Below, in pieces: positions 1,216-49,218 of a stretch of DNA of 63,914 nt. Positions within the stretch are counted from its first letter, which is position 1. Every line of letters starts with the position of its first letter. The position numbers and the translations under genes were made by a program. Under the pieces are notes generated by a model. That model was not told the origin of the DNA and did not search any database. It saw only the letters and a list, made by a program, of their open reading frames with translations. Source of the stretch: Candidatus Omnitrophota bacterium (GTDB lineage: Bacteria > Omnitrophota > Omnitrophia > Omnitrophales > Aquincolibacteriaceae); the NCBI GenBank assembly GCA_022705945.1, contig JAKJDL010000009.1:1-63914 (forward strand), written 5' to 3'.

Positions 1216-2978
1216 TAGTCGTCCGCAAGCTCCCTGCAAATATCTTTAAGCTTCTCGCCAAGAAACTGTTCGATTTCCTTGCCGGTCTGAAATGTCATTG
1301 CTTTCCGCGCGATTTCTTGCGCATCCGCGTAACGGATTGAACGGATCGCTTTTTTTATCTTCGGGAGGACCACGGGGCTCACGCTTATCTCATCGATTCC
1401 AAGCCCGACAAGGAGAATCGCAATCTTGGGATTGCCGGACATCTCGCCGCAGCTTCCGACCCAGGAATCATGCGCGTGGCCGTTTTTAATAACCGTTTCA
1501 ATCAGGCGCAGGATTGCGGGATGGGTCGGTTCGTAAAGGTAAGCGACCTTTTCGTTCATACGATCGATCGCGAGCACATACTGGATCAGGTCATTCGTTC
1601 CGATGGAGAAAAAATCTGTCTCTTTCGCAAGAACGTCGCTTGCGAGCGCCGCCGAGGGGATTTCAATCATCGCGCCCACATCGATCGACCGATTGAAAGG
1701 TTTCCCTTCTCGTTCCAGTTCCGCCATTGCTTCATTCAGGATTTCCCGCGACATCCGGATTTCATAAATATTGGAGATCATCGGATACATGATCTTGATA
1801 TTGCCGTGCGCGCTGGCCCTGAGAATGGCTCTAAGCTGGGTCTTGAAAATATCTTTCCGGGTAAGGCAAAAACGGATCGCCCGCCATCCAAGATACGGGT
1901 TCATCTCATGAGGAATTTCCAAAATCGAGGCAAACTTGTCTCCCCCGAGGTCCAGCGTCCGGATAATCACGGGGTGATGGCCGACCGCTTTCGCTACTTT
2001 GCGGTAGGCATCATACTGCTCATCTTCCGTCGGTAAAGAGCTTCGGTTCATATAAAGGTATTCGGTCCTGTAAAGGCCCACGCCTTCGGCTCCGTGCGAG
2101 ATCACCGAAGCGGCTTCGTGATGGAACTCGATATTCGCGGCCAGCGTGATCCTTTTGCCGTCCAGGGTTTCCGCGGGAAGATCCCGCAATTTATTCAGTT
2201 CGCCCGTGAGCTGAATAAAGCGGTTCTCTTCCGAAGTGAATTTTTCGATCGCCTCCTGATCCGGCTCAACGATGACGACCCCGTGCGTCCCGTCCACAAT
2301 AACCGGCATCCCGTTATCGACTTCATTGATAACCCGTTCGGCTCCCACGATCGCGGGAATTTCGAGTGAGCGACCCAAGATCGCCGTATGCGAAGTCGGT
2401 CCTCCAATTTCGGTAATAAAAGCGAGTACTTTGGATTTGTCCAGCATGGCTGTATCGGAAGGAGAAAGATCGTGCGACACAATAATGACTTTTTCCTTAA
2501 ATTCTTCAAGGCGTCTTTTTGCCTCGCCGCAAAGGTTCCCCATAAGCCGGCGACCGACATCCCGGATATCCGAGATGCGTTCCTTGAGATATTCGTCGTT
2601 GATCTGGGAAAAGGCCTGAAAATAGCGTTGGATGACGGTTGTAAATGCAAATTCCGCGGCCACTTTTTCATTTCTGATCACTTCGATCACATCCTCGATC
2701 ATGGTCCTGTCTTCAAGGATCAGGAGGTGCGCCGTAAAAATATCGGAGCTTTCCCGGCCGATCTGATCGGACAATTTGCGCCGGATCTCGAGGATTTCGG
2801 TCCGGGTACGCGCCAGGGCGTCTTCAAACCGGGCAATCTCGTTCGGGATGAGCTCGGGAGTGATCACCCTCCTGGGAAGATTGAAGGACTCGCCGCTGTG
2901 GAGCACGAACACCTTCCCGATCGCGATGCCGGGTGAAACCCCGATACCTTTCAATTCCTTCACGCTTTTATTCTCCAA
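1215..2978 (-). CDS. ptsI: PEP-protein phosphotransferase, PTS enzyme I (no GAF domain)
   Basis: GIGVSPGIAIG, TSHTAIL phospho-His motif, GVGLYRTE, IRTLDLGGDK, FFSIGTNDLIQY, GSCGEM. GTG at 2963 is an alternative start. Confidence 0.97.
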   Translation of the reverse strand: MENKSVKELKGIGVSPGIAIGKVFVLHSGESFNLPRRVITPELIPNEIARFEDALARTRTEILEIRRKLSDQIGRESSDIFTAHLLILEDRTMIEDVIEVIRNEKVAAEFAFTTVIQRYFQAFSQINDEYLKERISDIRDVGRRLMGNLCGEAKRRLEEFKEKVIIVSHDLSPSDTAMLDKSKVLAFITEIGGPTSHTAILGRSLEIPAIVGAERVINEVDNGMPVIVDGTHGVVIVEPDQEAIEKFTSEENRFIQLTGELNKLRDLPAETLDGKRITLAANIEFHHEAASVISHGAEGVGLYRTEYLYMNRSSLPTEDEQYDAYRKVAKAVGHHPVIIRTLDLGGDKFASILEIPHEMNPYLGWRAIRFCLTRKDIFKTQLRAILRASAHGNIKIMYPMISNIYEIRMSREILNEAMAELEREGKPFNRSIDVGAMIEIPSAALASDVLAKETDFFSIGTNDLIQYVLAIDRMNEKVAYLYEPTHPAILRLIETVIKNGHAHDSWVGSCGEMSGNPKIAILLVGLGIDEISVSPVVLPKIKKAIRSIRYADAQEIARKAMTFQTGKEIEQFLGEKLKDICRELADD

Positions 2979-3273
2979 AGTTTGTTTCGATGAGTTTCGT
3001 TAACGCGTCCATGGCTGTTTCCGCATCCTTGCCGCCCGCTACGACCCTGATCACCGAACCCATTTCAGCCGCAAGGGTCATGATCCCCATGATGGATTTT
3101 CCGTCTACCTTTATGTCGTCTTTATAGATCTCGATCGAAGCCTCGTATTTATTGGCCGTTTGGACAAAAAGTGCCGCCGGACGAGCATGAAGCCCGAGCT
3201 TGTTCGAGATCACCAGCTCCTTCTCGACTTTCTTTACTTCTCTTTTTCCGCCCCGCGGGCGACGCGACGTCAT
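2968..3273 (-). CDS. ptsH: HPr phosphocarrier protein
   Basis: GLHARPAA (His15 site) and DGKSIMG (Ser46 site); GAAGGA upstream of the ATG. Confidence 0.96.
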   Translation of the reverse strand: MTSRRPRGGKREVKKVEKELVISNKLGLHARPAALFVQTANKYEASIEIYKDDIKVDGKSIMGIMTLAAEMGSVIRVVAGGKDAETAMDALTKLIETNFGE

Positions 3274-3276
3274 AAT

Positions 3277-4536
3277 CTAGTCCTTCAGCTTCTTGGTATT
3301 CTTGGCGTAATAATCCAGGATCGATTTCATAATCTTCTCGGCATCGTGACGGACCTGCCCGTCCGACTTGAGGACCTCATCGGTCACAACCTCGTAACCC
3401 TTTTCGCGGATCTTGTCGATATCGAGCTTCACGGGCAGTGCACCGGCTTCCCGGTAACGCCGGTAAAGAGGTTCCGGAATCCTGGCCTTGTTAACAAAAA
3501 CCGCGTCCACGATCCGCGGATCGGTATGGTCGATAATCACCTTCAGGTGACCCCATGCGCTCAAATCCGTCGTTTCACCGGGTTGGGTCATGGCGTTACA
3601 GATATAAACCTTACAAGCATCTGATTTCAGGATCGCGTCCCGGATATCCTTGATAAGAAGGTTCGGCAGGATGCTGGTATAAAGACTTCCCGGTCCCATA
3701 ACGATGAGATCTGCGATCGAAATTGCGTCAACCGCTTCCTCGCAGGCCCTGCAATCATCCGGCTTCAGATGAATGCTGCGGAGCGGTTTCCTCTCATTCG
3801 TAATATTCGTCTCTCCTTCTTTGGAGGTGCCGTCCATGAATTCCCCGACAAGCGTAACTTTTTCAAGGGTTGAGGGAAGCACGCGACCCCGGATCGCGAG
3901 AACCTTGCTGGATTCCGCTATCGCTTTTTCAAAATCCCCCGTCACCATTGAAAGAGCTGTAATAAAAAGATTCCCGAAACTATGCCCTTTTAATCCTTCG
4001 CCTGTCTCAAATCGATACTGAAAAAGATCCCGGATCAAGGGCCCCGTATCCGCAAGGGCCACAAGACAGTTCCGGATATCGCCGGGAGGCAGGACATCCA
4101 TCTCGTCCCGGAGCCGTCCCGAACTCCCTCCGGTGTCCGTCACCGTCACGATTGCCGTAATATTGCGCGTAAAAAGCTTCATGCCCGAAAGCATGGTGCT
4201 GAGACCCGTGCCCCCTCCTATCGCCACGATCCGCGGCCCCCGGAGAAGTGATTCGGACTGACGGCTCTGATATACAATATCCACAAGCGGGCCCGTCTGG
4301 TTTAGCGGCATGAGGGCCCTGACAAAAATTTTGACCATGTTCTTGATCGAAGTATAGATGAGGAAAATCCCGAAGATCATGGCTGCGGTCGCAAAAGCCG
4401 CGAGCATTACGCTGGATTTCGCAATGGTCTTCACCGTGAGGAGGTCGACCACAACGAGCAGGCTCAGGCCGATCACACAGAGGGTGATCCAGCGCTTGAT
4501 ACCGATACCGGGATAGAGCCACTTGAAAAATTGCAT
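3277..4536 (-). CDS. yvcK: YvcK/GlmR (CofD-like, UPF0052) protein with N-terminal membrane segments
   Basis: IGGGTGLS, VTDTGGSSGRLR, PPGDIRNCL, GHSFGNL, GPGSLYTSILPNL; N-terminal KWLYPGIGIKRW followed by two hydrophobic helices. Confidence 0.92.
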   Translation of the reverse strand: MQFFKWLYPGIGIKRWITLCVIGLSLLVVVDLLTVKTIAKSSVMLAAFATAAMIFGIFLIYTSIKNMVKIFVRALMPLNQTGPLVDIVYQSRQSESLLRGPRIVAIGGGTGLSTMLSGMKLFTRNITAIVTVTDTGGSSGRLRDEMDVLPPGDIRNCLVALADTGPLIRDLFQYRFETGEGLKGHSFGNLFITALSMVTGDFEKAIAESSKVLAIRGRVLPSTLEKVTLVGEFMDGTSKEGETNITNERKPLRSIHLKPDDCRACEEAVDAISIADLIVMGPGSLYTSILPNLLIKDIRDAILKSDACKVYICNAMTQPGETTDLSAWGHLKVIIDHTDPRIVDAVFVNKARIPEPLYRRYREAGALPVKLDIDKIREKGYEVVTDEVLKSDGQVRHDAEKIMKSILDYYAKNTKKLKD

Positions 4537-47538: not shown

Positions 47539-48120
47539 TCAACGGACTTTTACTTTTCCGCTCAACACAAGGCTGAGGGCCTCGGGATAGATCCGATACT
47601 CGAGCTCGTGTATCCTGGCTTCCAGGGCTTCCAGCGTGTCTTCCGGAAAAACGGGAACTTTGCGCTGGAGGATGACGGGGCCGGTATCCACATCGCTATC
47701 GACAAAATGCACCGTAACGCCGGTCTCTTTCACTTTCGCATCCCACGCGTCTTTGATCGCGTGAGCGCCGGGAAACGCGGGAAGAAGCGCAGGATGAATG
47801 TTGATGATGCGGCCGTAATATTTTCTGACAAAGCCTTCGGTCAGGACACGCATGAATCCGCAAAGACAGACCAGGTCGATCTTGTGCTCATCGATACATC
47901 CGGCAAGCGCTTCGTCAAAAGCTTCACGCGAGTGATAGTCTTTATGAGAAATAACGACGGAAGGGACTCCGAACTCTTCGGCGCGCTCCAGGGCTTTCAC
48001 GCCCGACTTGTTCGAAATCACGAGCGCGGCCTCGGCAGGAATCTCTCCCGCGCTGATCCGCTTCACGAGGTTAGCCATATTCGTGCCGCTGCCTGAGACA
48101 AAAAAAGCCACTCTCTTCAT
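47539..48120 (-). CDS. purN: Phosphoribosylglycinamide formyltransferase
   Basis: VSGSGTN, LCGFMRVL, INIHPALLPAF, TGVTVHFV, DTGPVILQ. Confidence 0.97.
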   Translation of the reverse strand: MKRVAFFVSGSGTNMANLVKRISAGEIPAEAALVISNKSGVKALERAEEFGVPSVVISHKDYHSREAFDEALAGCIDEHKIDLVCLCGFMRVLTEGFVRKYYGRIINIHPALLPAFPGAHAIKDAWDAKVKETGVTVHFVDSDVDTGPVILQRKVPVFPEDTLEALEARIHELEYRIYPEALSLVLSGKVKVR

Positions 48121-48386
48121 GTCAGCCGCCCCGTTAGAGATAGGAAACGCTTCAATCTGTTTTTAAAGTATCGTTTCCCCACACCTGATTCCGAATACTT
48201 TTCTCTTGTCATAGCATCCTCACGGCAAACACAGGCCTCACAACAAATGAGTTTGAAAGGCCCCCTGCCTTCCGTCAATGGGACTTCCCCGGCATTATGT
48301 TGACTGAAGCGTTTCTGTAAATCCGCCGCATATCCGGCATATCATCGCCCATCTTTTTTGCTGAGAAGAACATATATGTAATACAT
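48117..48386 (-). pseudogene. Stand-alone GIY-YIG nuclease pseudogene (in-frame TGA at codon 15)
   Basis: My translation: MYYIYVLLSKKDGR*YAGYAADLQKRFSQHNAGEVPLTEGRGPFKLICCEACVCREDAMTREKYSESGVGKRYFKNRLKRFLSLTGRLT*; final stop overlaps the purN ATG. Confidence 0.88.
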
Positions 48387-48406
48387 ATTTAAATCTCTAA
48401 CGGGGC
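48128..48406. mobile_element. 279-bp cassette bounded by perfect 14-bp inverted repeats around the GIY-YIG gene
   Basis: GCCCCGTTAGAGAT (48128-48141) and ATCTCTAACGGGGC (48393-48406); mobility itself is inferred. Confidence 0.6.
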
Positions 48407-48531
48407 CATGTCGGCGCCGGAACCGGAAACCGGGGATGCGATACATTTCATACAAATTCCGCCCTGCGGATAACGGAAAGAGGATGTGGTTTGATTTAAC
48501 GCTTTCCGCCATCCGCCGCTCATTATCCGGT

Positions 48532-49218
48532 TCATTCAAACACCTTTTTTCGATTCTTTCCCGACACCAAAACCACCATCTCCCCTTTCAGACTGCGCTT
48601 TTCGGCCGCGCTCACAAGCTCCGAAAGCCTGCCGCGTAAAAACTCTTCGAACTTTTTTGTGAGTTCTCTTGCCACGACCGCTTCGCGATCACCGAACACT
48701 TCGAACATATCCCTGAGTGTCGAGGGCAGGCGGAACGGTGACTCAAAAAAGATCAGCGTCTCTTCCCGGTCAGCGAATCTTGCAAGTTGTCTTTTTCGGG
48801 CCGCGCTTTTATTCGGTAAAAATCCGAGAAATGAAAATTCATCGACCGCGAGGCCGCTCCCTACCAGGGCGGTCGTCACAGCCGAAGCGCCCGGAAGAAT
48901 TTCGAACGGGGCCTTCTCGCGGACAGCTTCCCTCACGAGGGTAAACCCGGGGTCCGAAATCGACGGCATCCCGCCGTCCGTCACAACGGCAACGCGCTTG
49001 CCCTGCCGCACAAGCGCGAGGATCTCATGAACACGGATCTCCGGGCTGTGTTCATAATAACTGAGGAGATGTTTTTCCGGGATTCCGTAATGCGTGAGAA
49101 GCTTGATCGTCTCCCGAGTATCTTCACAGGCGATGAAATCCGCGGCCCTGAGCGTTTCGACAGCCCGCACCGTTATATCTCCCAGATTTCCGATCGGCGT
49201 CGCGACAAGACTCAGCAT
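48532..49218 (-). CDS. rsmI: 16S rRNA C1402 2'-O-methyltransferase
   Basis: LVATPIGNLGDIT, ACEDTR, TDGGMPSISDPG, PGASA, GFLP, FESPFR, RELTKKFEE, GEMVV. Confidence 0.97.
   Translation of the reverse strand: MLSLVATPIGNLGDITVRAVETLRAADFIACEDTRETIKLLTHYGIPEKHLLSYYEHSPEIRVHEILALVRQGKRVAVVTDGGMPSISDPGFTLVREAVREKAPFEILPGASAVTTALVGSGLAVDEFSFLGFLPNKSAARKRQLARFADREETLIFFESPFRLPSTLRDMFEVFGDREAVVARELTKKFEEFLRGRLSELVSAAEKRSLKGEMVVLVSGKNRKKVFE

Follow-up and report, generated by a model that had tools for sequence, protein, structure and literature searches.

A small GIY-YIG nuclease cassette with a predicted double stem at the start of purN in an Omnitrophota genome, very probably a dead member of a mobile family

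Introduction

By gene layout, the studied system that seems closest to the element described here is that of the Ssn nucleases and their NTS/SRM hairpin repeats, and by sequence the best match is to UPF0213. SsnA of Neisseria meningitidis is a single-domain GIY-YIG protein of ~90 residues; the Ssn enzymes cut single-stranded DNA beside the hairpin repeats that flank their own genes, they also cut hairpins assembled from two half-site strands, and the authors liken the gene layout to that of an insertion sequence (Chenal et al., 2025; PMC11893778). Comparable in size and in single-domain build are the UPF0213/COG2827 proteins (BH0048 of B. halodurans, PDB 1ZG2; YhbQ of E. coli), among which we found the best structure match. 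We know of no report of UPF0213 genes that are bracketed by stems or mobile, and full-text literature searches found none. The free-standing GIY-YIG homing endonucleases of phages (I-TevI relatives, Seg proteins) are selfish genes that lie between the genes of operons and spread horizontally; these enzymes have a DNA-binding domain apart from the nuclease domain, and each returns to a single cognate site. Insertion sequences and MITEs (e.g. Correia elements) are bounded by terminal inverted repeats, have a small target motif and also occur as short derivatives, and IS200/IS605 elements use hairpins of single-stranded DNA and insert beside a 4–5 nt target. Finally, in rRNA intervening sequences, which RNase III excises, a long stem closes an inserted segment, sometimes with an ORF, in the transcript.

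The window analysed here is a stretch of 63,914 nucleotides from a Candidatus Omnitrophota bacterium (assembly GCA_022705945.1, contig JAKJDL010000009.1). A sequence-only reading of this DNA had proposed that a 90-codon GIY-YIG gene between perfect 14-bp inverted repeats could represent a class of tiny, palindrome-targeting nuclease cassettes. We conclude that the element is very probably a dead member of a mobile family of stem-closed GIY-YIG cassettes which, judged from their sequences, are ~275–290 bp long and have a lone gene predicted to encode an 86-residue single-domain GIY-YIG nuclease. Full-text literature searches returned no description of such cassettes, and the family is apparently undescribed.

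Each of the known systems resembles the cassettes in the traits named above and departs from them in others. Like the Ssn proteins, the cassette nucleases are single-domain GIY-YIG proteins of ~90 residues whose gene is flanked on both sides by hairpin-forming sequence. However, Ssn repeats are local SRM hairpins of 20–50 nt, complete on each side and present in hundreds of scattered copies, many of them solo, whereas the cassette flanks are two halves of one gene-enclosing stem, with a second helix inside the ORF and two motif sites in the genome, and the cassettes sit on start codons with a stop/start overlap. Unlike homing endonucleases, the cassette protein (86–89 residues) consists of the GIY-YIG domain only, lacks a separate DNA-binding domain and occupies many unrelated insertion loci rather than one cognate site. 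Terminal inverted repeats are present, as in insertion sequences and MITEs, but the only ORF of the element is the GIY-YIG gene; in contrast to these elements and to IS200/IS605, the cassettes have no DDE or HUH transposase, their duplications vary in length and their stems are partly coding. Unlike rRNA intervening sequences, they lie in mRNA operons at start codons and are known here from DNA.

Results

An inverted repeat brackets a GIY-YIG gene between rsmI and purN

The cassette and its surroundings comprise the following features (positions in the window):

47539–48120, minus strand: purN, the host gene, with the cassette directly at its start codon
48117–48386, minus strand: GIY-YIG pseudogene of 89 codons plus a stop (90 with the stop), ATG at 48386–48384 and TGA at 48119–48117
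48128–48141, minus strand: outer 3' arm, ATCTCTAACGGGGC, which is the ORF codons (L)SLTG and covaries with the 5' arm at the Leu and Gly third positions
48144–48157, minus strand: predicted 3' strand of the inner helix (covariation, RNA folds), ORF nucleotides ~230–244, codons ~77–81, RLKRF
48302–48315, minus strand: predicted 5' strand of the inner helix (covariation, RNA folds), ORF nucleotides ~71–85, codons ~24–29, QKRFSQ
48393–48406, minus strand: outer 5' arm, GCCCCGTTAGAGAT, which ends 6 nt upstream of the GIY-YIG ATG; the same arm lies 5' of homologous ORFs
48389–48451, minus strand: mini-ORF encoding MKCIASPVSGSGADMAPLEI and a stop, codons 1–15 being a diverged copy of the purN 5' end
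48452–48531, minus strand: spacer after the rsmI stop, species-specific, with a hairpin at 48478–48457 and a GGGCGG box at 48464–48459
48532–49218, minus strand: rsmI, the upstream host gene

A scan of the window located GCCCCGTTAGAGAT at 48128–48141 on the plus strand and its exact complement at 48393–48406, with 251 nt between them. These two arms are the only exact copies of the repeat in the window, and the 11-mer core of the arms has just two sites, both of them arms, in the whole 1.58-Mb genome, which thus holds a single copy of the cassette. In a profile search the ORF matched the Pfam GIY-YIG family (PF01541) with E=2e-13 and 50.8 bits against a cut-off of 22.6. The coordinates, the complementarity and this match confirm the perfect 14-bp repeat around a 90-codon GIY-YIG gene, and the arms lie where they had been described, one 6 nt before the ATG and the other over the codons for the C-terminal SLTG. 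The best solved-structure match of the protein is UPF0213 protein BH0048 (PDB 1ZG2, E=7.6e-12, residues 2–71); NCBIfam gave nothing but a sub-threshold match to a group I intron endonuclease, and an Rfam search over 47900–48700 gave zero matches. The sole ORF inside the element is the GIY-YIG gene, with no transposase. The window copy retains the catalytic Y, R, H, E and N, and all of Y3, Y5, Y16, R26, H30, E62 and N76, which are invariant or nearly so (95–100%) in the family, are present in it.

Perfect 14-nt inverted repeats with a spacer of 50–400 nt occurred in about 19 of 100 simulated windows of the same size, so a single such repeat proves little. That this one is not chance is shown by where it lies and by its recurrence in homologues.

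Elsewhere in the window, a perfect ~15-nt inverted repeat (GAAATTTCCTTTTTT / AAAAAAGGAAATTTC, at 725–740 and 836–851, 97 nt apart) lies inside a 336-codon minus-strand ORF. The genome also has a second small GIY-YIG gene, intact and of 108 residues (L003:1414–1740, contig C11), between trpA-like and ruvX-like genes; its start overlaps the end of the trpA-like ORF, and it carries no CCCCGTTAGAG arms.

Paired arms recur around homologous genes

A protein search with one genome per species gave at least 249 relatives, and the best 80 of these, at 58–67% protein identity, were examined. According to their record titles these 80 come mostly from Patescibacteria and also from Omnitrophota, Thermodesulfobacteriota, Nitrospirota, Planctomycetota, Clostridia, Bdellovibrionales and Gammaproteobacteria. 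According to one paper, the genes that Patescibacteria donate to other bacteria include one for a GIY-YIG protein. Together with the window and two loci from relatives (L007 and L008) they make up 83 genome sources, in 73 of which the CCGTTAGAGA core and its complement lie 200–330 nt apart around the ORF. Homologous GIY-YIG genes thus do carry the repeats, in these 73 sources as well as in 76 of 79 metagenome-contig loci, and the overall figure of ~150 of ~160 homologous loci bears out the existence of a class of tiny GIY-YIG cassettes bounded by inverted repeats.

We define the family by arms with the CCGTTAGAGA core, 225–285 nt apart around a ~86-codon ORF that ends in ..RFLSLTG, and by the presence of an inner helix; the window element has the arms, the ORF and the inner helix, and its stop abuts the host start. 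Intact ORFs of 80–100 residues, with invariant catalytic residues, account for 126 of the 148 bracketed ORFs, which indicates that the nuclease is under selection. The 686 kb of loci, all ascertained through the protein, contain 160 arm pairs, 151 at cassette spacing, nine shorter and none longer, and between the arms we found this GIY-YIG gene or deleted versions of it only. The suggestion that the motif flanks small cargo genes elsewhere was therefore right in that it does flank GIY-YIG genes in environmental genomes, but its plural is not supported, the 686 kb yielding a single cargo and its deleted forms.

Short gene-less derivatives, with perfect arms around ~80 nt of unrelated or deleted interior, are present in L040 (three copies), L081, L086 and L109. 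Tandem or nested copies occur in L081, L105, L108, L109 and L164, the last with two identical cassettes in tandem, and the 3' end of one cassette serves as the landing site of the next. At L040 (positions 1980–3360), three ~110-nt elements with perfect cassette arms and unrelated interiors lie within 1.4 kb, and two of these stand right next to a complete nuclease ORF, in place of that ORF's own arms. At L051, L077, L086 and L128 the cassette ORF continues in frame into a type IV pilin-like gene (..RFLSLTG joined to FTLIE..), which puts the C-terminal Gly of the cassette at the exact position of the prepilin G/F cleavage motif.

Paired-arm cassettes were detected in 22 of 401 sampled Omnitrophota genomes (~5%), from 17 of 282 genera, with 0 in a reversed-pattern control. 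A small GIY-YIG match of some kind is found in the genomes of 36 of 41 relatives. The GC content of the cassette is 45% vs 54–55% for rsmI and purN.

Two helices covary, one of them inside the coding sequence

Covariation and folding indicate that the cassette is closed by a two-part stem made of an outer helix of 14–15 bp and an inner helix of 13–14 bp. The inner helix lies inside the ORF, was missed by the sequence-only reading and played no part in the selection of loci; its covariation is even stronger than that of the outer arms, with 7 of 14 pairs changed on both sides and up to three or four pair types per position. In the outer helix, positions switch between T:A and C:G or among T:A, C:G and A:T and are Watson-Crick in 67–69 of 72 cases, and the third-codon bases of Leu and Gly in the 3' arm vary, by synonymous changes, together with their partner bases in the non-coding 5' arm. 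The inner 3' strand is separated from the outer 3' arm by 2 nt in the window copy and by 1–2 nt in the family, so the two helices could stack.

In an alignment of 60 sequences (A1), 93.8% of cells are paired vs 86.2% after shuffling (0 of 500 shuffles), and double-sided changes number 168 vs 54 in shuffles. As a control, sliding the partner strand on the same alignment lowers pairing to 26–48%. More distant homologues from sister subfamilies (L010 and L017) have other arm sequences at equivalent positions.

Folded as RNA, the window copy forms both helices in its minimum-energy and centroid structures, with a z-score of –2.1. Mismatches of the inner helix on the sense strand are G:T vs A:C in a proportion of 36:22, a slight excess that is compatible with folding as RNA or as DNA. 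The window copy deviates at 0 of 38 conserved stem columns vs 12 of 98 columns elsewhere (p=0.02), a comparison that is biased for the outer helix, since this helix is what drew attention to the locus. Two dead copies, that of the window and that of its congener G003, have kept their stems intact, a hint that the stems may serve the expression of the host gene and not mobility.

Cassettes insert at host start codons and tight gene junctions

The TGA of the cassette overlaps the purN ATG as ATGA (ACATGAAG at 48122–48115). The rsmI–purN gap is 411 nt in the window vs 5–51 nt in five relatives, three of the same genus (24–51 nt) and two of the same family, and the spacers of these relatives contain zero copies of the arm motif. 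Empty rsmI–purN alleles, on which the cassette proposal depended, are thus found in relatives. The further suggestion that the cassette targets palindromes is not supported: the arms are borne by the element, the 3' arm encodes a conserved C-terminus, the empty sites have no palindrome and insertions lie at start codons or junctions.

In 38 of 73 elements the nuclease stop shares bases (as ATGA, GTGA or TTGA) with the start codon of a co-oriented ORF of 60 or more residues, and a downstream ORF starts within 12 nt of that stop in 14 more; the 5' flank ends in ATGA in 23 of the 73. Cassettes have the orientation of the host gene and are inserted at its start codon or at a tight junction between genes. 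The 3' end of the cassette provides a stop codon that overlaps the host ATG or lies directly beside it, which leaves the host gene intact, and since host genes are uninterrupted, looping out by splicing is unnecessary.

Congener G003 has a frameshifted cassette at a different locus, etfB–etfA (L024:1470–1760). There etfB now ends in ..QPR at a TAG within the 5' arm, as does leuC in L007, and the upstream frame ends at an arm-internal TAG in L007, L044 and G003. In the genome of the window, contig C16 begins inside etfA, so the etfB–etfA junction is unassembled there.

Host gene starts are duplicated upstream of some cassettes

The mini-ORF upstream of the cassette crosses the 5' arm and its TAA stop lies 2 nt upstream of the GIY-YIG ATG. 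The 5' flank (48451–48407) encodes MKCIASPVSGSGADM, and the N-terminus of PurN is MKRVAFFVSGSGTNM; their alignment has a BLOSUM score of 44, which 0 of 2000 shuffles reach, the significance being at the protein level only, with a DNA-level alignment of the flank to purN that was not significant. A GGGCGG box precedes both starts, at 48464–48459 upstream and at 48131–48126 for the real purN. The sequence-only reading had seen no target duplication; one does exist, as this diverged copy of the purN ribosome-binding site and codons 1–15, and L151 has a fresh repeat. In the latter (L151:2276–2960), a 73-nt near-perfect direct repeat stands on both sides of an intact cassette and spans the ribosome-binding site and 18 codons of a wecB-like gene, up to an internal ATGA; its few differences are clustered at the start codon (GTG upstream, ATG downstream). 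Diverged 5'-end duplications with the same layout as in the window are present in L044, L054 and L056. Direct repeats at junctions include many of the ATGA(A) type, the 73 nt of L151 and the ~60 diverged nucleotides of the window.

Seven synonymous differences, including Ser TCC vs AGC, separate the upstream copy from the start of purN, and the fragment is therefore not a fresh in-place duplicate. There is about an even chance that the window copy was imported from another lineage already in the duplicated layout, with purN homology as its anchor. In favour of this import, the fragment looks foreign, the 125-nt spacer is unique and congeners lack the cassette; an ancient in-place duplication followed by loss in relatives is a possible alternative.

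Between rsmI and the purN fragment there is a terminator-like hairpin (48457–48478, minus strand) with TTTGTAT after it. The 125-nt stretch that contains it matched nothing else in the genome and nothing in 20 relatives, and with its sequence unique, a repeat or a known element was ruled out for this spacer.

More distant small GIY-YIG homologues (L009, L011, L013, L014, L015, L016, L018, L022 and L023), at 35–45% identity and from relatives of the window genome, in most of these loci lie immediately 5' of a same-strand tRNA gene, with the tRNA upstream instead in L014; ARAGORN called no tRNA on L023. At most of these tRNA-adjacent loci a direct copy of the 5' part of the tRNA, often interrupted by a GC palindrome such as CCTGCCTGCCGGCAGGCAGG, lies upstream of the nuclease ORF, and the resulting layout of fragment, nuclease and complete gene is the same as at purN.

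The copy in the window is decayed

Codon 15 of the GIY-YIG ORF in the window is an in-frame TGA (48344–48342), and eight residues whose conservation in the family is 85% or more are replaced in this copy (T17A, T20A, K39E, Y48C, Y49C, L65S, K66E and M69V). It had been called dead, a view with which the premature TGA and the eight changes at conserved residues agree. Six assemblies from different samples are identical across 2.7–3.6 kb, TGA included, and the copy is a real, fixed pseudogene. An alternative code or recoding (TGA read as Trp) was ruled out by the role of TGA as main stop, by the eight further substitutions and by the TGA shared among six assemblies; TGA is the commonest stop of the window, ending 42 of 71 long open frames, and the neighbour genes are intact under table 11. 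At columns that are at least 90% conserved, the copy has seven nucleotide deviations on the sense strand, six A>G and one T>C, a bias that could reflect GC amelioration in a host of 53% GC or a strand-biased mutation process.

Discussion

Our data describe, at the start of purN, a cassette whose arms, gene and inner helix recur at many other loci. The whole explanation that we favour, a fixed and decaying mobile cassette with a stem structure that landed on a start codon by the steps proposed below, is in our judgement probable, with a good measure of reserve. By analogy with the Ssn nucleases, the enzyme would act on the stem folded in single-stranded DNA and cut the junction between element and host, a step for which we see as much reason to doubt as to believe. 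The same analogy, together with the finding that halves of one stem enclose the gene, favours recognition of the folded stem by the element's own nuclease. GIY-YIG enzymes hydrolyse DNA without strand transfer, so integration would have to rely on host repair or replication, which would complete the insertion. The ends of the element (ATGA, GGGGT/GGAGT) could be joined through short homology to start-codon or ribosome-binding-site sequence, and where the two joints are apart the 5' end of the gene would be duplicated; taken jointly, these two steps stand evenly balanced between acceptance and rejection. In such an event, the element ends would join at separate look-alike points (after the ATG, and at a GGGG/GGAG box), and the stretch between them would be duplicated with an intact gene downstream. 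Ribosomes from the old start site may then be relayed through the nuclease ORF to the host gene, a step on which our opinion is equally split. A role in RNA, as processing or as ribosome relay, is a live alternative that may coexist with the role in DNA.

A stricter version of that alternative holds that the stems act in RNA only and have no part in DNA mobility: by pairing they would loop the cassette out of the operon mRNA, to be processed in the manner of RNase III, or control the translation of the nuclease and of the downstream host gene. The presence of both helices in the minimum-energy and centroid RNA folds agrees with this, as do the constant co-orientation of the cassette and its translational abutment to the host gene, the slight sense-strand excess of G:T over A:C mismatches, the intact stems of the two dead copies and the ~29 bp of the two stacked helices, stacks of this length resembling RNase III substrates. 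However, the mismatch asymmetry is weak and the z-score of the RNA fold is just –2.1, gene-less derivatives with unrelated interiors keep perfect arms (L040), and an element that moves between loci and phyla still needs something to define its ends. We regard stems confined to RNA as unlikely, if still to be reckoned with.

Three other readings are poorly supported. That a transposase encoded elsewhere acts in trans on the arms as on the ordinary terminal inverted repeats of a MITE, with the GIY-YIG gene as a passenger, would suit the repeats themselves, the ATGA(A)-type short direct repeats at many junctions and the short derivatives; yet 151 of 160 arm pairs enclose this one gene and the remaining nine deleted versions of it, the 3' arm and the inner helix are within the coding sequence and co-evolve with the gene, the window's own genome has a single copy, and the duplications vary from ~4 to 73 nt where transposases give a fixed length, all of which makes this scenario very unlikely. 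Even less probable is a vertically inherited, non-mobile housekeeping nuclease gene of the YhbQ/UPF0213 type with a regulatory hairpin. The resemblance of the protein to UPF0213 and the small GIY-YIG matches in 36 of 41 relatives speak for it, but the gene is absent at rsmI–purN in same-genus relatives, patchy (~5% of sampled genomes of the phylum), placed at unrelated loci with a GC content below that of the host, and in many copies dead, tandem or nested. A repeat arising by chance or as a coding by-product, through self-complementary AAR-CGY-TTY codons or random recurrence of a 14-mer, would accord with the ~19% of simulated windows that have a perfect 14-nt inverted repeat and with the quasi-palindromic KRF codons; against the conservation of the arms at non-coding upstream positions over ~150 loci, the compensatory changes at synonymous sites and the failure of the slid and shuffled controls, its likelihood is close to nil.

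The amino acids of the inner helix covary with the opposite strand, so the coding sequence is shaped by pairing, and the family offers a clean natural case of dual coding. For annotation, the cassettes account for puzzling short ORFs, for gene starts that are present twice and for 'GIY-YIG-pilin' fusions in metagenome-assembled genomes. As the analogy with the Ssn enzymes suggests, it could be possible to program the nucleases to cut DNA hairpins or half-sites.

Tentatively, and with somewhat more doubt than conviction, we propose an autonomous element of <300 bp that encodes a single protein, the 86-residue GIY-YIG nuclease. The DNA of the element, or its transcript, would fold into a double stem, and the element would settle at the starts of genes and restore, by copying, the host gene's ribosome-binding site and initial codons. 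If true, no self-sufficient mobile gene known in bacteria would be smaller, the damage of insertion would be neutralised in a new way, and the element could reside even within the 5' coding region of an essential gene with no need of an intron or intein. If the mechanism holds, the minimum for a mobile gene would be one minimal nuclease domain and a self-pairing coding sequence, insertion at the starts of essential genes would be harmless through stop/start overlap and 5'-end duplication, and the cassettes would provide a route of cross-phylum gene flow among ultra-small bacteria, Omnitrophota and others.
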